From: a phage
Length of the DNA: 64,000 bases
Direction: 5' to 3' (one strand)
Sequence record: PZ091942.1
The position numbers were made by a program, and so were the translations under genes. Below, one piece after another: positions 1,138 to 11,493 of this stretch; the stretch's first letter is position 1; each line of letters opens with the position of its first letter. Under the pieces are notes generated by a model. It searched no databases and had not been told where the DNA came from. It saw only the letters and a list, made by a program, of their open reading frames with translations.

Positions 1138-3381
1138 TTATTTTCTACTACCAAGCTTTCTATTAGGAATACGTGAATCTTTGAGAGAACTTTGTTGTTC
1201 TTTCTTAGTTTCATTTGCTTCTTTCTTTTGGAGTTCCAAAGTCTTATCTTGAATGTGAGCTTGCTGGTCAATCTTCTCCAAATCAACTTGATGATTCATA
1301 GTCAACTGTAGTTCTTTCAATACTGATTCATACTGACGAACCTGTTGCTGGAGCAGAGATAACTTATGCTTAGCTTGTTCAAGAGTAGCTGAATTGTCTT
1401 CCTTACGATTCTCAAGAGTCATATGATCTGCTGCGTTCTCTTGCTTGAATTGCAGTTCTTCTTGACGTAAACTAAAGTCATCCGCAGCTTTCTGCTGTTC
1501 GAATGTAGTACGTTCACGCTGGTCGAATGCATCAGCAATCATCTTCTGAGAAGAAGCCTGTACGTTCTCAACCTGAGCTTTAGTCATCTCGAGCTGGAGG
1601 ATTTCCATCGGAGAAGGCTGAGGCGGTTGATACTGTTCCAGAGGCATAAGATATTTATGAGTATCTTTAATTCCCATCAGTTCAAAGATTTGAGCAGTCA
1701 TGTAACGATCTTGTTCCAGAGTAAAGAGAGGTGCAAGCTGAGCATCAGCAGCAATCAGTTGCTTCAGACTAATCAGTTTCTGTGCACGTTCTGCTTTCTC
1801 ATTAGGAGAGATAGCTACAACAACTTGTAGATTGTGACGAGCTGGTAATTGTTTAGGGTTCACTTCTACCATACCACGAGGGGTTTGTACCTGTAAAGGA
1901 ACTTCACCATTTTCTCTGATAAGGTTATAAATACCACGCATTAACTCAACCATACCATTATGTGCAATGTTACGACACACCATACGGAGACGGTTCTGTG
2001 CAGCATTCATCATTAAGCCAACAGTTGCATACGCATTATCGTTCTTAAATACATCAGGGTTAATACCCATACCTAGTTTAGTAACACCTGTACGAGTTTC
2101 TTTCAATTCATCAGACATACCCAACAGACCATCAATACCCTGAGGTAGATTGTGGTATGGGAAGAGATCAATCGCATCCTGACGCTCCATTTCTACTACA
2201 CCGCCCGGACGGTTGTCTAGCAAAGAACGACGGTCGTACGTGCCTGCTATCGCCTTATAGCGACCATAGTTGGCATTGTTAACGTTATCAATATAACCGC
2301 GTACTAAAGCTGTACGGAGGTCTTGAATATCCTTAGTAATGTCATACACGGATTGACCATAGAAGGAACCCGGAATCGGATAAGGACAGAAAGTAACAAA
2401 AGGAATACTGGTAACTTCTTCACAGGAAAGAATGTGCTCGCCTGCTTGGATTACTTGGTACAATTTAGATTCTTTATTCTTATCTAGTACACCAGTACGG
2501 ATATAGTGTTCATAGACCCACACCATAGAAGATACATCTTCAGTATCTACACCAATATCTGCATCAATGTCCTGTCTCCAGTCAGTACGTGACCAAGCAA
2601 CAGTTGATTGAGTGGTATCCATTGTGTCAGTCCAATCGTTGAATGCTTCGATTTCGTCTTTAGGAAAACCAAGAGCAAGTAATTCATCTTTAGACTTACG
2701 TGTGCGATGGCAGAAATACTGAGCATCTGCAAAAGAGGTTGCATGTTCATCAACAAAGATTTGCTCTGAAGGAACATATTCAACTTTAACACGTTTAACA
2801 GTTTGTTTGTACGTGACCTTGACGTCAACCGTACCATCTTCATTTTCAGTGGTAAAGATTTCTAAATCCTGTAAACCGCCTGCTTCCATACCTTGAACAT
2901 ATGCAGCAAGAGCTTCCGGTGGAACGCCCTCTGCCTCTTCAGTTTGAGTTGAGGTTTGTTCATCCCAATAGTATTTGATAAAAGAGTTACGTGTAACCAG
3001 ACATTCCTGAGCCGCTGAGGAAATGATGTTATATCCCGGATTATCACGAAGCATGATTTGGTTGACAAGCTTAGTTGCTACATCAGCTGCATCAGAATCT
3101 GCTTGGTTGTCCGCAACAAACGTCACCGCTTCATCGCCTGAACAGAACACGTTAATGATATCTTGCAATGTACCGTTTACTGATTCCCATACTGTACGGT
3201 CTACCCAACTAGAGCTACCATCTGTAACTGGAGCAGGTAAGTTACCATAGAAGTATTCCCAAGCTTCACGAGCATAGCCTTTTACAGCAATGTCTACATA
3301 ACCTTGAGCATAATAGAATCGACGTTGAAGGTCAACGCGCAGTTCATCCAAAATATCTTCACTAAATTTATTCTTAGCCAT
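1138..3381 (-). CDS. portal protein (putative)
   Basis: 747 aa ORF directly downstream of large terminase; GAGGGAG SD; C-terminal charged coiled-coil region as in P22-type portals; assignment by position and size. Confidence 0.6.
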   Translation of the reverse strand: MAKNKFSEDILDELRVDLQRRFYYAQGYVDIAVKGYAREAWEYFYGNLPAPVTDGSSSWVDRTVWESVNGTLQDIINVFCSGDEAVTFVADNQADSDAADVATKLVNQIMLRDNPGYNIISSAAQECLVTRNSFIKYYWDEQTSTQTEEAEGVPPEALAAYVQGMEAGGLQDLEIFTTENEDGTVDVKVTYKQTVKRVKVEYVPSEQIFVDEHATSFADAQYFCHRTRKSKDELLALGFPKDEIEAFNDWTDTMDTTQSTVAWSRTDWRQDIDADIGVDTEDVSSMVWVYEHYIRTGVLDKNKESKLYQVIQAGEHILSCEEVTSIPFVTFCPYPIPGSFYGQSVYDITKDIQDLRTALVRGYIDNVNNANYGRYKAIAGTYDRRSLLDNRPGGVVEMERQDAIDLFPYHNLPQGIDGLLGMSDELKETRTGVTKLGMGINPDVFKNDNAYATVGLMMNAAQNRLRMVCRNIAHNGMVELMRGIYNLIRENGEVPLQVQTPRGMVEVNPKQLPARHNLQVVVAISPNEKAERAQKLISLKQLIAADAQLAPLFTLEQDRYMTAQIFELMGIKDTHKYLMPLEQYQPPQPSPMEILQLEMTKAQVENVQASSQKMIADAFDQRERTTFEQQKAADDFSLRQEELQFKQENAADHMTLENRKEDNSATLEQAKHKLSLLQQQVRQYESVLKELQLTMNHQVDLEKIDQQAHIQDKTLELQKKEANETKKEQQSSLKDSRIPNRKLGSRK

Positions 3382-5620: not shown

Positions 5621-6280
5621 TTAGTCTACATCACCTACGTGTAGGTTGAACAAAGTCTGGAGAGCTACCGTTTCACCTTTCCAAGTAACTGGAACGGACT
5701 TGTCATTCTCTACATCAAAAGAAGAGGACGCCAAAAATTTTTTGTATTCTTCAAGCTCGGGGTCCAGAGCTTGTTCACTAACATGCACCCACGTAACTAC
5801 TTCATTACCTTCTTCATCAATTACTACATTACGAGACCATTGCTCTTTTGAATTTAAATAATTATTCAGAGCTTCATACTCGGCTTCTTCAATCATCTCA
5901 ATCATCTCACGGGCATAGTCCGGTAGGTGTGCATGTTTGTCAGCTACATACGGAACAACTTCTAAATTGGAGGGACACTTGCGTTTAACTTCCTTTGCTA
6001 CAGTGAAATAGTCTTTCACATCTTTAGCTTCTGTACGAGGAATCAAACCTTCCCATAATTCACGGGTTGAAGGAGCATAACCATACACAGAACCATGAGC
6101 CAGTTGTTTTACCATCTCAACTTGGGATTTACCTCCAGTAGTTTCATGAACACGGTTCAGATAGAAAGTGTCCTCTGATAAAGGACGGATCGAACCATTG
6201 TAAACAACCTCGCCTTTACATCCCATGTTCTCATAGATTGCATTCAGTGTATTAGTTCCTGTCATATTGTTATTCATCAT
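5621..6280 (-). CDS. hypothetical protein (219 aa)
   Basis: Track ORF 5621..6349 begins with TTG; trimmed to ATG at 6280 with GAAGGAGAGA SD. Confidence 0.5.
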   Translation of the reverse strand: MMNNNMTGTNTLNAIYENMGCKGEVVYNGSIRPLSEDTFYLNRVHETTGGKSQVEMVKQLAHGSVYGYAPSTRELWEGLIPRTEAKDVKDYFTVAKEVKRKCPSNLEVVPYVADKHAHLPDYAREMIEMIEEAEYEALNNYLNSKEQWSRNVVIDEEGNEVVTWVHVSEQALDPELEEYKKFLASSSFDVENDKSVPVTWKGETVALQTLFNLHVGDVD

Positions 6281-6530
6281 TCTCTCCTTCAGTGTCAGTG
6301 TTATCACTATAACGATAATCTTTAAATGTCTCAGCCTTGTAGGACACAAAGCATCTCATGTACAACCAGCCCAATGAACTAAGGTCCATCGTAGCATCAA
6401 AATCTTCGTCGTCGTCTAAGTCTACCAATCTACCCAAACAACTCAATACTTCTCCTCCTTCTTCAAATACAAATGCACATTTTTCAGTGCGGAAGTAAGG
6501 AATCAACTCTGATAAAAAGTCTAGAATCAT
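6270..6530 (-). CDS. hypothetical protein (86 aa)
   Basis: Track ORF 6270..6563 (TTG start) trimmed to ATG at 6530 with GAGGAGAT SD. Confidence 0.45.
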   Translation of the reverse strand: MILDFLSELIPYFRTEKCAFVFEEGGEVLSCLGRLVDLDDDEDFDATMDLSSLGWLYMRCFVSYKAETFKDYRYSDNTDTEGENDE

Positions 6531-6823
6531 TTTATATCTCCTCTGATATAAGAGAGCAATCAACCCATAAAGGCGTACTCATCTAAAGGCCCACCCATGT
6601 ATGAACCCATGTACGCTGATGTAAAGGGGACTTCATAAAGGCCATGTCACATTAAGGCATACCCATTAAGGCTTATCCACCCATGTACTGAATCTCAACT
6701 TACCACATTCCTTGCACTTCCATGTTGATAGGTAGAGACCATGTATTCTTTCATCCCCGTAAGCTTTACGAAGAAGATAGTAATTGTGCTTACACTTCAT
6801 CCGTCTAAATACTTTAATTAGAT

Positions 6824-6970
6824 TCATTCCATCTCCCGTAAAGCTTTAGTTAGCATCATTACCAACGTAGCTGCATCTGAGCGTTCTGTGTAATGGAGGA
6901 AAGGATTGGTAGCCTTCTTTAAGGCCTTCTCAAGTTCAATGTTAATGAGTTCTTTAGTGCTGAGATTCAT
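6824..6970 (-). CDS. hypothetical small protein (48 aa)
   Basis: Internal ATG of track ORF 6824..7147 with AAGG SD; first ORF of the minus-strand late block. Confidence 0.3.
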   Translation of the reverse strand: MNLSTKELINIELEKALKKATNPFLHYTERSDAATLVMMLTKALREME

Positions 6971-7714
6971 ACTTAACCTTATATATAAGAGTTTAAAATA
7001 CAGATTTATAAAAAATAAAGATGTATATATCTGTTTAAAATTCTGATTTGACCGAGTGGACCTAGCCCCTCCGCGAGTGTTTCCTAAAAAGGGGGAGTCC
7101 TCATTTAAAAAAGGGTTATTGGCAATGCCTTTACATCCTTTCCCCACGTTCCAGCGTTTCCCCGTACCTACTCCCCGTTATTCTTTCCCCGTGTATACTA
7201 CCCAATACATTACCTACCCGTTTATTTAGTACCCCTTTAAAGAGTAGGAGAAAGGCTAGTCGCTGATAAGGCCAACTGATTAGTCTGCTAATAATGCCAT
7301 TAATGATGGTCACCACTCCCCATAGTTTGATTGTAAATAGTTTCAATAGTGATTGTTATGAGTGCAATAATGATGTATATATTAATCAAGTGGATGATTG
7401 TGTTTCTTTTAATTATTTCCTTTTTCAGCGTTCTTTTATTCTTTTTCTTTTAACGTTTGATGTTTGAGTAATGCTATTAATAGTTAACTAATTATTTAAG
7501 TGGTATATTATTACCGCACTATCTTGCTATGTTTCCCCGTGGTCTGTCCTGCGGTTGGGTGTTCCCCGTTCGTCCTGGTCTGTTGGTCTGCTACCCGTAG
7601 GATTAGTGTTATAAAGTAACAATAGTCAGTAAGATAATCCCCTGAATGTAGAAAGTTTAGTAAATTAAATTTCTTTAGTTTTCAGTAAGATGCGAGAAAG
7701 TTAGAAAATAGTTG

Positions 7715-7742
7715 GTTGACGGTCTTTTCCTTTATTATATAG
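7715..7742 (+). promoter_or_regulatory. sigma70-type early promoter (TTGACG-16-TATAGT)
   Basis: -35 TTGACG 7715-7720, -10 TATAGT 7737-7742, AT-rich upstream; about 45 nt before first plus-strand gene. Confidence 0.5.
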
Positions 7743-7787
7743 TGGCGATTGTAGTTTGTAGTTTTCATCAACCAGAAGGAATATCAA

Positions 7788-8660
7788 ATGTCTAAAGTAG
7801 CAATTAACCAATTGAACAAAGCAAACGAAAGTCTTTCCTCTTTAGGCTTAACCGTTGGTAGTCCTGATGCGTGGATGGAAAACGAAAGCGCACGTAAAGG
7901 ATTCAAAAACTCAATCATGTTGGCTTGCTTGATCATCAATTCTACTGCGAACGCTTTACAGTGTGAAGATGAAAGCACGTTCAAAGAAAACGGTTTTACC
8001 GATATGCAGGACGCTATTAATTGTTACATTCAGGCAAATTTAGACAGTTGGAATCAGAAAGATTGGCCGGAATCATGCCGCGATGTGAAAGCTGAATTAT
8101 CCCGCTTGTCTGTCATGGTTGAAGCATGGAACAAGAAAAATAAGAAACAGCCAATCAAGCCCACTGTTGCAAGTAAGATTATGAAGTCTATTAATCTGGC
8201 AAGTTATGCACTGGTTGCAGCAATCGGTGTTAGTGCACTGGTAACTTCTCTTTCTGATAAGGCTGTGGCTAGTCCTACTCCTGCAACTGATGCGGCTAGT
8301 GTCTTCGTTAGTTCCATCAATAAAGGTTGGATGATTTGCAACGGTGCAGATAGTGACACTAATCAAGTAGTTTTAAAGGTTAAATTTAGTAACGTTTCCC
8401 GTAGTGGTCTGGTTGTTAGTACCAAAACATTGGACAATCAGGGCAATGAAGATTTAGTCTTAAAGCGTAGTGATAATGATCCCGAACTAGTCACATTTGG
8501 TACTGTACAACATTACAGCCATGCGAAAGCTGTCACGAATCTGGTGAGTTATGGTCCGGTTAATGAGTCGATGATCGCTACCACTGTTTATAATAATGCT
8601 GATAACGCTGTTTATACCGTTCACGTTAATTTAGCCAACTGTATTAAGGCTAGTAAATAA
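7788..8660 (+). CDS. hypothetical early protein (290 aa)
   Basis: ORF track; GAAGGAA SD; first gene of plus-strand block. Confidence 0.7.
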   Translation: MSKVAINQLNKANESLSSLGLTVGSPDAWMENESARKGFKNSIMLACLIINSTANALQCEDESTFKENGFTDMQDAINCYIQANLDSWNQKDWPESCRDVKAELSRLSVMVEAWNKKNKKQPIKPTVASKIMKSINLASYALVAAIGVSALVTSLSDKAVASPTPATDAASVFVSSINKGWMICNGADSDTNQVVLKVKFSNVSRSGLVVSTKTLDNQGNEDLVLKRSDNDPELVTFGTVQHYSHAKAVTNLVSYGPVNESMIATTVYNNADNAVYTVHVNLANCIKASK

Positions 8661-8687: not shown

Positions 8688-8939
8688 ATGGCTATCAAAG
8701 AAGTTAAATTATCTAGCGGCTTTTCTTGTTTTGTGTGTGATACTTTTATCGCGTTCGGCTTGCGAACTGGTGACGTAATACTGCCTACCGTTGCATTTTG
8801 TTCAATGAGTTTTAACGAGGCCAAAAAATGGCTTCAATTGGTGCGCATTGATATTAATCGCGATGACTTCCGATCGATCTATGTTGACGGTGATTTGTCG
8901 CTTGCTGGTCTTCTTGATTGTGATTTGCCAAAATGGTGA
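8688..8939 (+). CDS. hypothetical protein (83 aa)
   Basis: ORF track; CAGGAG SD. Confidence 0.6.
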   Translation: MAIKEVKLSSGFSCFVCDTFIAFGLRTGDVILPTVAFCSMSFNEAKKWLQLVRIDINRDDFRSIYVDGDLSLAGLLDCDLPKW

Positions 8940-9052: not shown

Positions 9053-9418
9053 ATGTGGTTTATTAAATTCGTCATTAAAACGGTTGTAGGCTTTTTTCTG
9101 GTCATTCTTCTGTTGGGTGTATTACTATCGGCTATGGGTAGTGTAAAGGCTGCAACGTTTTCCCCTGCTACGGTGGAAGGTTTACAGTGTACCTATTTGA
9201 TAGAAAACTATTCGACTGGTAAAAAGTCACCTAAGGTTATTATTTTACATGTAAACGATTTCGATCATGTACAATCATACGATAAGACTATTCAACTGGT
9301 AAATGAATCCACTGGTAAACAAATCACGGTCGATCACTTGATGCGCTCATCGTTAACACTCTTTGATGAGTTTATGAATGAAATGGCATCCGGTAACGGT
9401 CAATGTGTAAATCCATAG
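9053..9418 (+). CDS. hypothetical membrane/secreted protein
   Basis: ORF track; AAGAAGG SD; hydrophobic N-terminal helix. Confidence 0.6.
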   Translation: MWFIKFVIKTVVGFFLVILLLGVLLSAMGSVKAATFSPATVEGLQCTYLIENYSTGKKSPKVIILHVNDFDHVQSYDKTIQLVNESTGKQITVDHLMRSSLTLFDEFMNEMASGNGQCVNP

Positions 9419-9494
9419 GCTTAATCTTTCTCCTTTATTGTGCCGTGGTCATGCCTATGGTCATAATCTATCTGATGCTTTAAAACCTCCCTAT

Positions 9495-9517
9495 AAGCCT
9501 CTTAATGAGGCTTTTTT
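9495..9517 (+). terminator. rho-independent terminator
   Basis: Stem AAGCCTC/GAGGCTT, loop TTAAT, followed by TTTTTT. Confidence 0.6.
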
Positions 9518-9679
9518 CATTTCTAAGGTGATTGCATACCTTACTACCTTTTAGCTCGCTATAGTGCGTTTTAGGCCGCTAAATATTGCTTTACAAGCCG
9601 TTTCCTATGATGTATCACGTTCGCCCGCTCTTTTACCTCCCTCATAGTGAAAAAGTTTAAAATATTTTGCTTTCCCCTA

Positions 9680-9707
9680 TTGCAACCTCAACTGATTGGC
9701 GTATACT
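9680..9707 (+). promoter_or_regulatory. candidate sigma70 promoter (TTGCAA-16-TATACT)
   Basis: Hexamers read directly; no ORF downstream. Confidence 0.35.
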
Positions 9708-9805
9708 CATTTCTATCGGGTACGATGTAAAACATACAAGGCAAGGAAACTTGCCCCGCTCTTTAAAAATCAGGCTAGAAAGTGAAAATATTCTTAAAAA
9801 GAGTA

Positions 9806-9833
9806 TTGACAGCCGGAAAGCCTGAACTATAAT
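9806..9833 (+). promoter_or_regulatory. near-consensus sigma70 promoter (TTGACA-16-TATAAT) with AT-rich UP-like region
   Basis: -35 9806-9811, -10 9828-9833; downstream ATG opens only a 7-codon frame. Confidence 0.6.
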
Positions 9834-10542
9834 GAGTGTAGAAAGACAAGATGACCGCTCAAGTAACTCCCTAGTGAGTGAAGCAAGTCAGACGTAGGCA
9901 GGCGGATACCATGCCCCCAAATAATCGTGGGTTAACTGATTATCAAGCGGTGTTATGTGAGCCGCACGCTCTTTAAAAACATGATTTGTCTTAAAGGTGG
10001 CGGTGACGTCATTACTATAAGGCGCTCAGTTAATCGGTAGAATTGATTCCTGATTCATACGTGACGCAGGCGGACAATAAGCAATATCAATAAGCCTTAT
10101 TTGTTCGATACTTTCAAAAGATTAATGCTTGAAAGCGTACTAGATTCCTAAAAGACAAATCAGACTTATCATCTTGCCCTTTCGCATAGATTCACGCGAG
10201 ATAAGGGAAAAGAATAAAAGAAGATGATAAAAAAGAGGTTGCAAACGTGGTTAAGATAGTTCATACTAACCACAAGTTAACAAAACAACGTTAACTAGTT
10301 CCCAAATCAACGTATCGCGGGAAAGGTGGCACATAGTGCAGCGAGTAGTTCGGGAGTAGGCGCCCCGTTAATGAATAAGTAAGCCTTTAATGATGCAGTG
10401 ATTAGCAGACACTATAAAAGGCTAAAACGCTCTTTAACAATATGAATCATGATTTTAGCCTCATCGCTTGATCTTCAATCAAATAAAGCTGATTGATATA
10501 TCCTCCCAATAGCGGGAACGACGAAAAAGATTAAAAAAGCGA

Positions 10543-10571
10543 TTGACAGCTAAAACATCATGGTCCATAAT
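10543..10571 (+). promoter_or_regulatory. near-consensus sigma70 promoter (TTGACA-17-CATAAT) with AT-rich upstream
   Basis: -35 10543-10548, -10 10566-10571; no start codon with SD in the next ~120 nt. Confidence 0.6.
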
Positions 10572-11493
10572 GAGCACACTTAAGCAAAACACCGCTTCAG
10601 TGAAAAGCGTAACAACGGCTAACAGTTGCGTAGTGTGAGAAAGCACACTGACAGATTTACTGCTCTTTAACAATTTAAACATTCTTCTATATCGGTTACA
10701 TATGCTGGAAGATAATAACCATCGGACAGCATACCAGATAAAACGGCGTAAAACTCCCTAAAATATCAGGGTAAACAGTTTTACATTCCCTTACTGGAAA
10801 CGCCACCACTGATAAGCGGATTCATTGAGTACACGCAACGGCTTAAGCTAATCGCCCACGGTTAAGGGTAGCGGCGGCCATCGCTAACAAGGTGCTACAG
10901 TGAAAGAAGTTAATCAGGGTAGGCAAGTCCGACAAATTAACGCCCAATTGAGGGCGGCGGGGAATGGTTAAAGAGTAGCAAATTGCTATTTAACAATAAG
11001 GTTTAGTGTGAACGTTTACGATGCGAACGGCTTGAGATTCGTCTTACGATGAAAGTACATAGCCGGTTTATGTAGTAAACTTGCCGAAAGATATAAAACG
11101 TCGGAATATTAGACGGCTAATGACTCTTTCGCAATAACCTCCCGTAGTGGGCGATGGTTAGCGATTGAGAGTTAGTATAAAAGGATAGGCGGGAGCGAAA
11201 GCAAAGTAAACGATATTGCCGACGGTTACAATAAACGTAACTAATTAGAGTCGGACGCACTGCCTTATTGTGATGATTGATCATCGCTATCAGGTCGGCT
11301 TCGTTTATAGCGACTAATTAAAGATACCAGATGAAACATCACGGATAAGGGGGCGGCAAGGTTAACTCCTGACAAGACCGCCCCGCTTATCAATAATTAC
11401 TTAACAATGAGTGATTATCGATAAGTCAATGGCGACTTAAAAAAGCTCATAGAGAGCGGGGCATAGTGCCCTTACAATTGAAAGGTGAATATC

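Follow-up and report, generated by a model that had tools for sequence, protein, structure and literature searches.

What does a virulent coliphage do with 2 kb of DNA that lies in front of its early genes and appears to encode no protein? The question is raised by positions 9518-11484 of a 64,000-nucleotide (nt) phage sequence, record PZ091942.1, which was analyzed along its whole length and is called the window below. About 100 phiEco32-like coliphages of the Gordonclarkvirinae (genera Kuravirus and Suseptimavirus), among them MN05, ECBP2, KBNP1711, SU10 and phiEco32, share this region and its flanks at 90-94% identity, and the window phage belongs to this Kuravirus/Suseptimavirus group. The region's counterpart in phiEco32 is an unannotated 1.9-kb gap that separates gp125 from gp124 (EU330206, 72787-74730). 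Most depositors leave the spacer blank, and some enter 1-10 small hypothetical open reading frames (ORFs), e.g., in EK5, CHD5UKE1 and MN05. The phiEco32-like phages are a well-studied model of host RNA polymerase use and are present in phage therapy collections, and about 100 deposited genomes leave these 2 kb blank or filled with doubtful mini-ORFs.

We consider it probable that the region is the structured, untranslated leader of a sigma70 early transcription unit, antiterminated by Nus factors through boxA copies, laid out like a ribosomal RNA (rrn) operon and probably processed by RNase III. A preliminary description, made from the sequence alone, had pointed out the lack of plausible ORFs, several sigma70 promoters and a recurring short motif, and had proposed three candidates: a cluster of early noncoding RNAs, a transcription-activated replication origin, or promoter/protein-binding decoys. 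The first of these is strongly supported by a covarying, plus-strand structure that lies downstream of consensus sigma70 promoters and has no coding signal. The description was thus partly right: it recognized the noncoding RNA and missed both the identity of the motif and the rrn-like design. Once the motif is recognized as boxA, the region reads therefore as one antiterminated leader that would be co-transcribed with the early genes, not as separate small RNAs or decoys.

The motif, GCTCTTTAA, is by its sequence boxA, the RNA site of host NusB/S10. The gamma-proteobacterial boxA consensus is GYTCTTTAANA, taken from Baniulyte et al. (PMC5725501). The window holds four perfect matches (9758, 9968, 10429 and 10662), all on the plus strand and all within 905 nt, where 0.57 would be expected per 64 kb. 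GCTCTTTAA itself occurs four times on the plus strand of the region and once more in the 64 kb, on the minus strand, against 0.72 expected. The motif had been described as five-fold. Four plus-strand copies are exact and the copy near 9626 is degenerate (CCGCTCTTTTAC), while a sixth, near-copy (TGCTATTTAACAA) is found at 10984; two of the positions given, 9747 and 10659, are really 9757 and 10661. Homologous regions (n = 22) contain 89 boxA copies, 3-5 per phage, and 0 of the 89 are antisense. Their variation is restricted to the N of the consensus and to the 5' neighbouring base, even where the flanks are unrelated, a pattern that fits an RNA-level NusB/S10 site and not a DNA iteron.

Direct comparison with Escherichia coli K-12 extends the match past the core. 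Positions 10659-10677 (ACTGCTCTTTAACAATTTA) share a 19-nt identity with the rrnB leader boxA region, and positions 9758-9771 (GCTCTTTAAAAATC) a 14-nt identity with the boxA of the rrnB 16S-23S spacer. Past boxA, an nhmmer comparison of a 17-sequence profile and of the window sequence with the whole rrnB operon found nothing. A sequence-level mimic of rRNA was rejected on this result. Likewise, a search of 5,426 complete E. coli genomes with the region (blastn, distant mode) gave no match, the boxA identities being too short for that search.

Every boxA stands 50-190 nt downstream of a sigma70 promoter-like site, in predicted untranslated RNA, and usually has a hairpin on its 5' side. Hairpins precede boxA1-boxA3 too, in the boxB-boxA order of rrn operons. 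The signals that border and punctuate the region are the following.

9495-9517, plus strand: intrinsic terminator found by a terminator scan; it ends the upstream operon of small genes (gp125-128 homologues) and forms the left border of the element.
9625-9636, plus strand: degenerate boxA-like site CCGCTCTTTTAC, which does not match GYTCTTTAANA.
9680-9707, plus strand: P1, weak sigma70 promoter-like sequence TTGCAA-16-TATACT (9/12), also in ECBP2 and KBNP1711.
9740-9769, plus strand: hairpin GGCAAG-gaaa-CTTGCC (stem found at 9736-9759), then boxA1 CGCTCTTTAAAAA (9757-9769).
9806-9833, plus strand: P2, consensus sigma70 promoter TTGACA-16-TATAAT (12/12) with an A/T-rich upstream tract, conserved in relatives.
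9967-9979, plus strand: boxA2 CGCTCTTTAAAAA.
10237-10265, plus strand: P2b, fourth promoter position, TTGCAA-17-CATACT.
10428-10440, plus strand: boxA3 CGCTCTTTAACAA.
10543-10571, plus strand: P3, near-consensus sigma70 promoter TTGACA-17-CATAAT (11/12), conserved in all relatives.
10661-10673, plus strand: boxA4 TGCTCTTTAACAA, inside the 19-nt identity with the rrnB leader.
10975-10996, plus strand: hairpin GCAAATTGC (helix 22) overlapping the boxA-like site TGCTATTTAACAA (10984-10996), between Domains 1 and 2, invariant in 17/17 homologues.
11480-11496, plus strand: start of the gp124 homologue, Shine-Dalgarno sequence AAAGGTGAAT and ATG (11494).
12413-12440, plus strand: strong intrinsic terminator directly 3' of gp124, given for context; early transcripts must read through it.

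The terminator, the gene start and P1, P2 and P3 are where the preliminary description had placed them, and P2b is added here. In relatives P2b reads TTGACA-16-TAGAAT or TTGACA-17-TATACT; its position is kept in all of them while its strength varies. Early promoters in this spacer are already known: the SU10 paper (PMC4281155) puts three sigma70 early promoters there for phiEco32 and SU10. The SU10 and SU7 records annotate a terminator at the same place as 9495-9517, and SU7 also annotates one at 12413-12440. Beyond the region, no plus-strand promoter scoring at least 11/12 is found within 20 kb downstream, and terminator-like hairpins are in excess between 11400 and 31000 (32 vs. 13.9 expected). 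Antitermination is thus plausibly needed downstream, with no strong promoter for 20 kb and surplus hairpins on the way. The decoys suggested earlier are not needed to explain the promoters, which are the only strong sigma70 promoters that feed more than 20 kb of early genes. A cluster of GC-rich plus-strand hairpins lies within the early genes (13702-13930, 16452-16477), several of them with CTTCGG loops.

Is the region really untranslated? The poverty of ORFs noted earlier holds: in 9518-11484 the plus strand offers at most 52 aa, in an ORF that begins with TTG (9667-9825), and the minus strand at most 67 aa. Across the 3' 916 nt of 17 homologues the longest plus-strand ORFs range from 15 to 54 codons, and their positions are not conserved. 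Identity to the relative TH34 by codon phase is flat in the region (0.75/0.72/0.80), as opposed to 0.86/0.89/0.57 in the adjacent gp124, and no frame of the region has an excess of third-position substitutions. The region is nonetheless conserved like the neighbouring gene, at 74-76% vs. 76% identity to TH34/NC-B, while the third codon positions of that gene are only 57-60% identical to the same two phages.

A dense packing of unannotated micro-ORFs, as the 1-10 small ORFs entered by some depositors would imply, is on these data hardly credible. No ORF keeps its position, the indels among homologues are overwhelmingly of 1 nt, and the third-position signal is missing. In favour of such micro-ORFs, a 19-codon ATG ORF at about 10702-10761 is kept in divergent relatives, its length being unchanged even in TH34. 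This ORF lacks a Shine-Dalgarno sequence, undergoes non-conservative amino-acid changes and overlaps helices 8-9, a hairpin that covaries; it probably arose as a side effect of constraint on the RNA.

That constraint is visible in a structural alignment of 17 distinct homologues (74-94% identity) of 10578-11493, a segment bounded by the P3 transcription start and the start codon of gp124; the preliminary description had recommended alignment against related phages, and it shows the structure to be conserved. RNAalifold draws 241 pairs, 76 of which have compensatory double changes. In a 279-pair RIBOSUM model, 98.2% of the sequence-by-pair cells are standard pairs, compared with 93.0% in column shuffles, and 83 of the 279 pairs have changed on both sides, compared with 36.2 +/- 3.6 in shuffles, none of which (0/500) reaches 83. 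When the 3' partner is moved by 1-3 columns, only 8-12 double-changed pairs remain. The covariation score is 0.223, vs. 0.117 in shuffles. The signal also has a strand: sense does better than antisense in alifold energy (-468 vs. -405), in G-U pairs (9.8% vs. 4.9%) and in the z-score of the single-sequence fold (-11.1 vs. -5.5), and has fewer broken cells (2.2% vs. 4.7%). The spacer is an ornate, plus-strand-specific structured RNA with no coding signal. Its parts, including those upstream of the aligned segment, are listed below.

9840-9966, plus strand: P2 leader RNA module with hairpin GCGGTGTTATGTGAGCCGC at its end; its counterpart in the early region of MR4 (Autographiviridae) is about 72% identical.
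9982-10162, plus strand: Module A, a structured domain in the alignment fold, with closing helix 9982-9992/10152-10162 that starts 2 nt after boxA2.
10165-10232, plus strand: conserved hairpin TTATCATCTT...AAGATGATAA, covarying between ATCATCT/AGATGAT and ATCGTCT/AGACGAT.
10266-10427, plus strand: Module C, an optional stretch of about 160 nt that 7/17 relatives carry as an insert, with a hairpin just before boxA3.
10441-10542, plus strand: hairpins, then the A-tract upstream of P3; TCAATCA/TGATTGA covaries with GTTAATC/GATTAAC, and TCCC/GGGA with ATTC/GAAT.
10578-10660, plus strand: P3 leader with three hairpins (helices 1-3), the last of which (10631-10650, loop GAGAAAG) is boxB-like.
10674-10983, plus strand: Domain 1, an RNA of about 300 nt with leader-trailer helix 10680-10687/10959-10966 (helix 6); helices 6-20.
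10858-10878, plus strand: invariant motif ACGGTTAA-GGGTAGCGGCGG, inside Domain 1.
10995-11269, plus strand: Domain 2, about 275 nt, closing helix 10995-11010/11256-11269 (helix 23); helices 23-33, the inner ones rich in compensatory changes.
11270-11472, plus strand: 3' hairpin cluster, helices 34-41.
11346-11389 (loop with GGTTAAC), 11391-11420, 11422-11439, 11445-11457 and 11458-11472, plus strand: hairpins of the 3' cluster.

Compensatory changes recur from part to part. The closing and inner helices of Module A keep their pairing through such changes, also in comparison with the unclassified 65-kb coliphage PJNS034, a segment of which is about 75% identical to the module; two of the compensatory pairs lie in the closing helix. 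The covarying hairpins of the mid-section fall within 10441-10520. The boxB-like hairpin at 10631-10650 alternates among GTGTG/CACAC, ACGTG/CACGT and AGGTG/CACCT, with double changes in 3/7 pairs, and its GAGAAAG loop resembles the rrnB boxB loop GAGAAAAAGC. Helix 6 of Domain 1 has three compensatory pairs, and in the minimum free energy (MFE) fold of the window sequence the Domain 1 helix grows to about 25 bp that include boxA4. In this model the boxA4 segment 10655-10671 would pair with the trailer 10967-10983, alternatively or additionally to the closing helix of the domain; 14/17 positions are pairable in all 17 phages, with one switch from U-A to C-G.

The stem-loop reported earlier at 11345-11385 is real and covaries between GGCGG/CCGCC and GGGAG/CTCCC. 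The recurrent GGCGG...GGTTAA modules of the same description fared less well. GGCGG is indeed enriched, with eight plus-strand copies in 9901-11356 against about one expected from the window-wide density (about 7-fold). No discrete repeated unit exists, the copies sit in different helices, and GGTTAA is only mildly enriched. Since the plus strand has a single CCGCC in the same interval, most GGCGG copies lack a perfect-complement partner. Both motifs are mostly components of helices and form no separate repeated module.

In Domain 1, two invariant hairpin loops, AAUAACC (10713-10719) and ACGGUUAA (10858-10865), could form a 5-bp kissing interaction, GGUUA/UAACC. The sole variant of the first, AAUGACC in LAMP and ManiMatter, would retain the kissing pair as a U-G wobble. 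In addition, AUUUACC just 5' of boxA4 can pair with the gp124 Shine-Dalgarno segment GGUGAAU (helix 4); both sides are invariant, and the pairing therefore gives no covariation evidence.

The RNA matches no described family. A covariance-model search that included large phage noncoding RNA families had been advised, and it gave no Rfam 15 family for the region: at the gathering score the sole match in the whole window is a transfer RNA at 17927-17999, and when 9400-11600 was scanned permissively, with E-values as high as 10 allowed, only chance-level matches below threshold came up (E-values of 0.73-6). A covariance model of the Domain 1 core (R1) has no match in PJNS034, Pantoea phage TacPo2, Salmonella phage 7-11, SP6, T7, MR4, rrnB or the rest of the window. 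A gp124-anchored IMG/VR search yielded five loci, all from known close relatives, and a metagenome scan for the invariant Domain 1 motif yielded 29 stretches, of which only seven are true homologues (87-93% identity). The structured RNA is confined to the approximately 100 Kuravirus/Suseptimavirus genomes.

The conserved fold bears on two further explanations. The promoters could serve T7-like pulling of the genome by host polymerase, or act as polymerase sinks, with the transcript being incidental. In its favour, a tandem series of strong sigma70 promoters with boxA behind it, close to a genome end, recalls T7 A1-A3, and the element lies about 2-4 kb from the gene-orientation switch that marks the genome ends. 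Yet an incidental transcript would not keep 98% of 279 pairs through 83 compensatory changes, nor show conservation like that of a coding sequence. A DNA-level role accounts for the promoters and boxA and not for the RNA structure; it may coexist with an RNA role, and as the explanation of the region we find it quite improbable.

The second is the transcription-activated replication origin, in which a structured primer RNA or an R-loop would act as in ColE1 RNA II or the T7 primary origin. Strong promoters within a gene-free region and a structured, G-rich transcript are what such an origin would offer, and ColE1 RNA II depends on a specific fold. The region nevertheless has 0 DnaA boxes (at most one mismatch), as against 77 in the 64-kb window. 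Its repeats are boxA and the promoter cassettes, and it has no iterons apart from the strand-specific boxA. No block of AT-rich DNA suited to unwinding is conspicuous, the GC skew gives no guidance, switching at about 7 kb and tracking gene orientation, and the G-rich runs sit in covarying RNA helices. boxA is a signal for transcription elongation and is not known to act in replication. An origin is, on this evidence, very unlikely.

How, then, would an antiterminated leader work? The arrangement of the parts suggests an answer. In each of three modules the 5' strand of the closing helix begins within a few nt of boxA, and boxA or a boxA-like site follows the 3' strand: boxA2 leads to 9982-9992/10152-10162, boxA4 to 10680-10687/10959-10966, and the site at 10984 to 10995-11010/11256-11269. 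Host RNA polymerase would start at the four tandem promoters, of which P2 and P3 are at consensus strength, and each transcript would soon carry a small hairpin and then boxA. The boxA RNA would recruit NusB-S10 (NusE) and, with them, NusA, NusG and SuhB, turning the polymerase into a faster, Rho-resistant antitermination complex of the rrn type. The modified polymerase could then cross the roughly 1.7 kb of untranslated RNA and, after it, more than 20 kb of early genes. Meanwhile the boxA-tethered complex would retain the leader strand close to the RNA exit channel while the trailer is still being transcribed, probably aiding formation of the helix. RNase III probably cuts the leader-trailer helices; such a cut would sever the upstream boxA from the polymerase, hence the need for a new boxA after each module, and the fresh boxA or boxA-like site would re-arm the polymerase.

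The relatives differ in how the leader is put together. Promoter-leader-boxA cassettes and optional modules make up a 5' kilobase that varies from phage to phage, with clean gains and losses between boxA copies; everything from P3 onward is present in all relatives. The folded RNA measures about 0.9 kb universally and up to about 1.7 kb in total, and is modular. Module A is optional: LAMP, TH34 and others lack it precisely, the break falling right at boxA, which in LAMP and TH34 is joined directly to TTATCATCTT; the junction in relatives that lack Module A reads boxA-TTATCATCTTGCCC. It looks as though boxA copies serve as recombination points at which RNA modules are shuffled, both inside a phage family and from one family to another.

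In an alternative reading the folded modules are the real product, namely stable early noncoding RNAs that are excised by RNase III and act in trans, boxA serving only to get them made. The targets might be Nus factors, RNase III, ribosomal or other RNA-binding proteins, or a defence system, with the RNA as a sponge or decoy. Specific helices are conserved through many compensatory changes, beyond mere overall stability, and discrete modules bracketed by long-range helices and boxA are shared between unrelated phages (Module A with PJNS034, the P2 leader with MR4). Consensus promoters would drive these modules at the very start of infection, and the sense-strand enrichment of GGCGG also speaks for a function of the RNA itself. 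Against trans action stand the lack of a match to known RNA families or protein-binding RNAs, or of similarity to rRNA past boxA, and the varying number of modules, which makes some of them dispensable. A cis role, moreover, is just as compatible with the position of Domains 1 and 2, which always lie immediately 5' of gp124. We regard trans-acting RNAs as a tentative possibility, one that overlaps with an antiterminated leader and does not exclude it.

A bolder version, which we think unlikely, would make the region a pseudo-rRNA operon that seizes the host machinery for rrn antitermination and folding and uses it to make a family of large ornate RNAs not described before. After excision these RNAs would work in trans as infection begins, and would be more than a leader for gp124. 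With its consensus promoters, both types of host boxA and its leader-trailer helices it would, on the same speculative footing, capture NusB, S10, NusA, NusG, SuhB, S4 and RNase III. The RNAs might divert ribosome-biogenesis or Nus factors from host rrn operons and so contribute to host shut-off, or might neutralise a host defence.

Several observations weigh against the favoured reading of an antiterminated, rrn-like leader. The boxA-like site at 10984 has a C-to-A change in its core, and half of it lies within a hairpin. In the single-sequence MFE fold the trailer occupies boxA4, and the site could thereby be less accessible; in the model this pairing could equally be a post-transcriptional switch. 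No GU-rich element resembling boxC is evident after the phage boxA copies, while rrnB carries one (TGTGTGGG) 18 nt after its boxA; the role of boxC is reported to be unclear (PMC10250234). Complexes of the rrn type act mainly against Rho, and boxA alone therefore leaves read-through of the intrinsic terminator at 12413-12440 unexplained. In Salmonella phage 7-11, a distant relative, about 1 kb of gene-free leader (reverse strand, last ~1050 nt) precedes gp151, the first of its early genes, and this leader has no match to the boxA consensus; the antitermination strategy of 7-11 has been called undefined (PMC8948821). Finally, antitermination does not by itself require some 1.7 kb of specifically folded RNA. 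Candidate roles for the modules are stabilization or gating of the early mRNA in cis, including translation of gp124, excised trans-acting RNAs or sponges, and an RNA that modifies polymerase as HK022 put does.

The surroundings of the region add some detail. The flanking homologues of gp124 and gp125-128 have no informative Pfam or PHROG function. Homologues of two small early proteins (9053-9418 and 8688-8939; 121 and 83 aa) are called "terminase" and "polymerase" in some records via PHROG names; these labels are doubtful, since the size of the proteins, their membrane-like N-terminus and the lack of Pfam support argue otherwise. The sign of the GC skew flips with gene orientation at about 6000-8000 and about 52000 of the window. 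Because the two flip together, the record appears to be permuted or reverse-complemented: the phiEco32-type genome ends would meet within the window, and the element would lie about 2-4 kb in from the early one. Further downstream lies the transfer RNA mentioned above, a tRNA-Arg (anticodon TCT) on the plus strand at 17927-18002, with a match to the boxA consensus on the opposite strand at 17722-17732.

What the locus offers is, in the first place, a testable answer to how early transcription from a few promoters survives Rho over tens of kilobases: through boxA. It also offers a covariation-backed RNA of about 0.9-1.7 kb that belongs to no Rfam family and occurs in an E. coli phage amenable to genetics. 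Large ornate RNAs of this sort are rare and usually come from organisms that are awkward to work with. The modular RNA and the pseudo-rrn layout in a virulent coliphage appear to be new, while the promoters and the principle of boxA are of known kinds; a full-text literature search returned no paper in which boxA or a structured RNA is connected with phiEco32 or Kuravirus. The design, in which boxA is followed by the 5' strand of a helix, a domain, the 3' strand and the next boxA, is met in SP6-like and PJNS034-like phages as well, and its repetition ties the region to models of the rrn antitermination complex as an RNA-folding chaperone. It suggests that phages exploit the chaperone activity of this complex, and that boxA copies are junctions at which RNA modules are exchanged between unrelated phages.

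Among known systems, the large RNAs GOLLD, ROOL, OLE and raiA are comparable in being ornate, covarying and several hundred nt long, and some of them are phage-borne (bioRxiv 10.1101/2024.12.08.627333). They match the window RNA in neither sequence nor structure (Rfam 15), and the latter is modular, punctuated by boxA and placed as the 5' leader of an operon.

Closer in principle are the boxA elements of clustered regularly interspaced short palindromic repeat (CRISPR) arrays and of suhB, where a consensus boxA likewise opens an unusually long untranslated transcript (PMC7665894; PMC5725501). At these loci the untranslated RNA is guarded from Rho in a Nus-dependent way, as reported for the long CRISPR transcripts (PMC7665894). 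These are chromosomal loci with a single boxA, in contrast to the many copies set between structured domains of a lytic phage.

Phages of other groups use leader RNAs in related ways. The boxA core is shared with lambda nut sites (PMC10250234), and in lambda, as we propose for the window phage, a cis-acting RNA shortly past the early promoters makes host polymerase resistant to termination. The order of elements differs: hairpin then boxA in the window, as in rrn, and boxA then boxB, the hairpin bound by the phage N protein, in nut. No N-like protein has been identified in the window phage, and no search was made for one. The put RNAs of HK022 are shorter, at about 70 nt, and lack boxA.

The leaders of T7 and SP6-like phages share with the region a series of tandem strong host promoters, consensus boxA, helices of the RNase III type and then the first genes. 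In T7, CGCTCTTTAACAA lies at 812-824, after A1, A2 and A3 (498, 626 and 750) and before gene 0.3 (925); SP6 has boxA copies at 655 and 925. For SP6-like phages and MR4 the likeness includes true homology of short modules, the P2 leader and a boxA flank. In SP6 (655-940) and MR4 (2622-2878) two boxA copies flank a helix of about 20 bp (GGCUAGUGUCUUGAUAGGC/GCCUAUCAAGGCACUA), which starts 3-5 nt past the first boxA and stops just short of the second, with about 200 nt between its strands. The enclosed 230 nt of SP6 hold annotated gene 1 with its Shine-Dalgarno sequence. By BLAST, the boxA flanks of SP6 and MR4 are conserved across many SP6-, K1-5- and PhiM1-like phages, and the interiors vary. 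The differences are equally clear. The T7 leader is about 430 nt long, with one boxA, a local hairpin and the RNase III site R0.3, and the long-range helix of SP6 surrounds a small gene with a Shine-Dalgarno sequence, whereas the window encloses about 1.7 kb of conserved noncoding domains. The window phage, moreover, belongs to another subfamily, Gordonclarkvirinae, and encodes no phage RNA polymerase.

A further parallel comes from PJNS034 (1501-3322) and the unclassified 65-kb Pantoea phage TacPo2 (1500-3123), in which an unannotated gap of 1.6-1.8 kb separates divergent operons. In these gaps lie boxA copies, a consensus promoter, TTGACA-16-TATAAT (PJNS034, 2814), and a leader of about 470 nt that shows 22 compensatory pairs in a two-sequence alignment and carries an internal boxA-like ACTCTTTAACAA. 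On the strength of these two sequences, the leader may be a second, independent case of the same design.

The closest likeness in layout is to the rrn operons of E. coli themselves, in which boxB-boxA-boxC follows the promoter, leader-trailer helices are processed by RNase III and a second boxA set precedes 23S (PMC10250234). The shared features run from boxA and its flanks, identical or nearly so over 19 nt in the leader and 14 nt in the spacer, and a hairpin 5' of boxA, to the placement of boxA just past strong promoters with A/T-rich upstream tracts. Both layouts continue with a long, untranslated, structured RNA in which leader-trailer helices start right after boxA and boxA returns after each enclosed domain. 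The phage version departs from the host one in enclosing RNAs of 180-300 nt without similarity to rRNA and with no evident boxC, and in having four to six boxA sites and four promoters within 2 kb. Unlike an rrn operon, the phage unit runs on into protein-coding early genes and belongs to a virulent phage.

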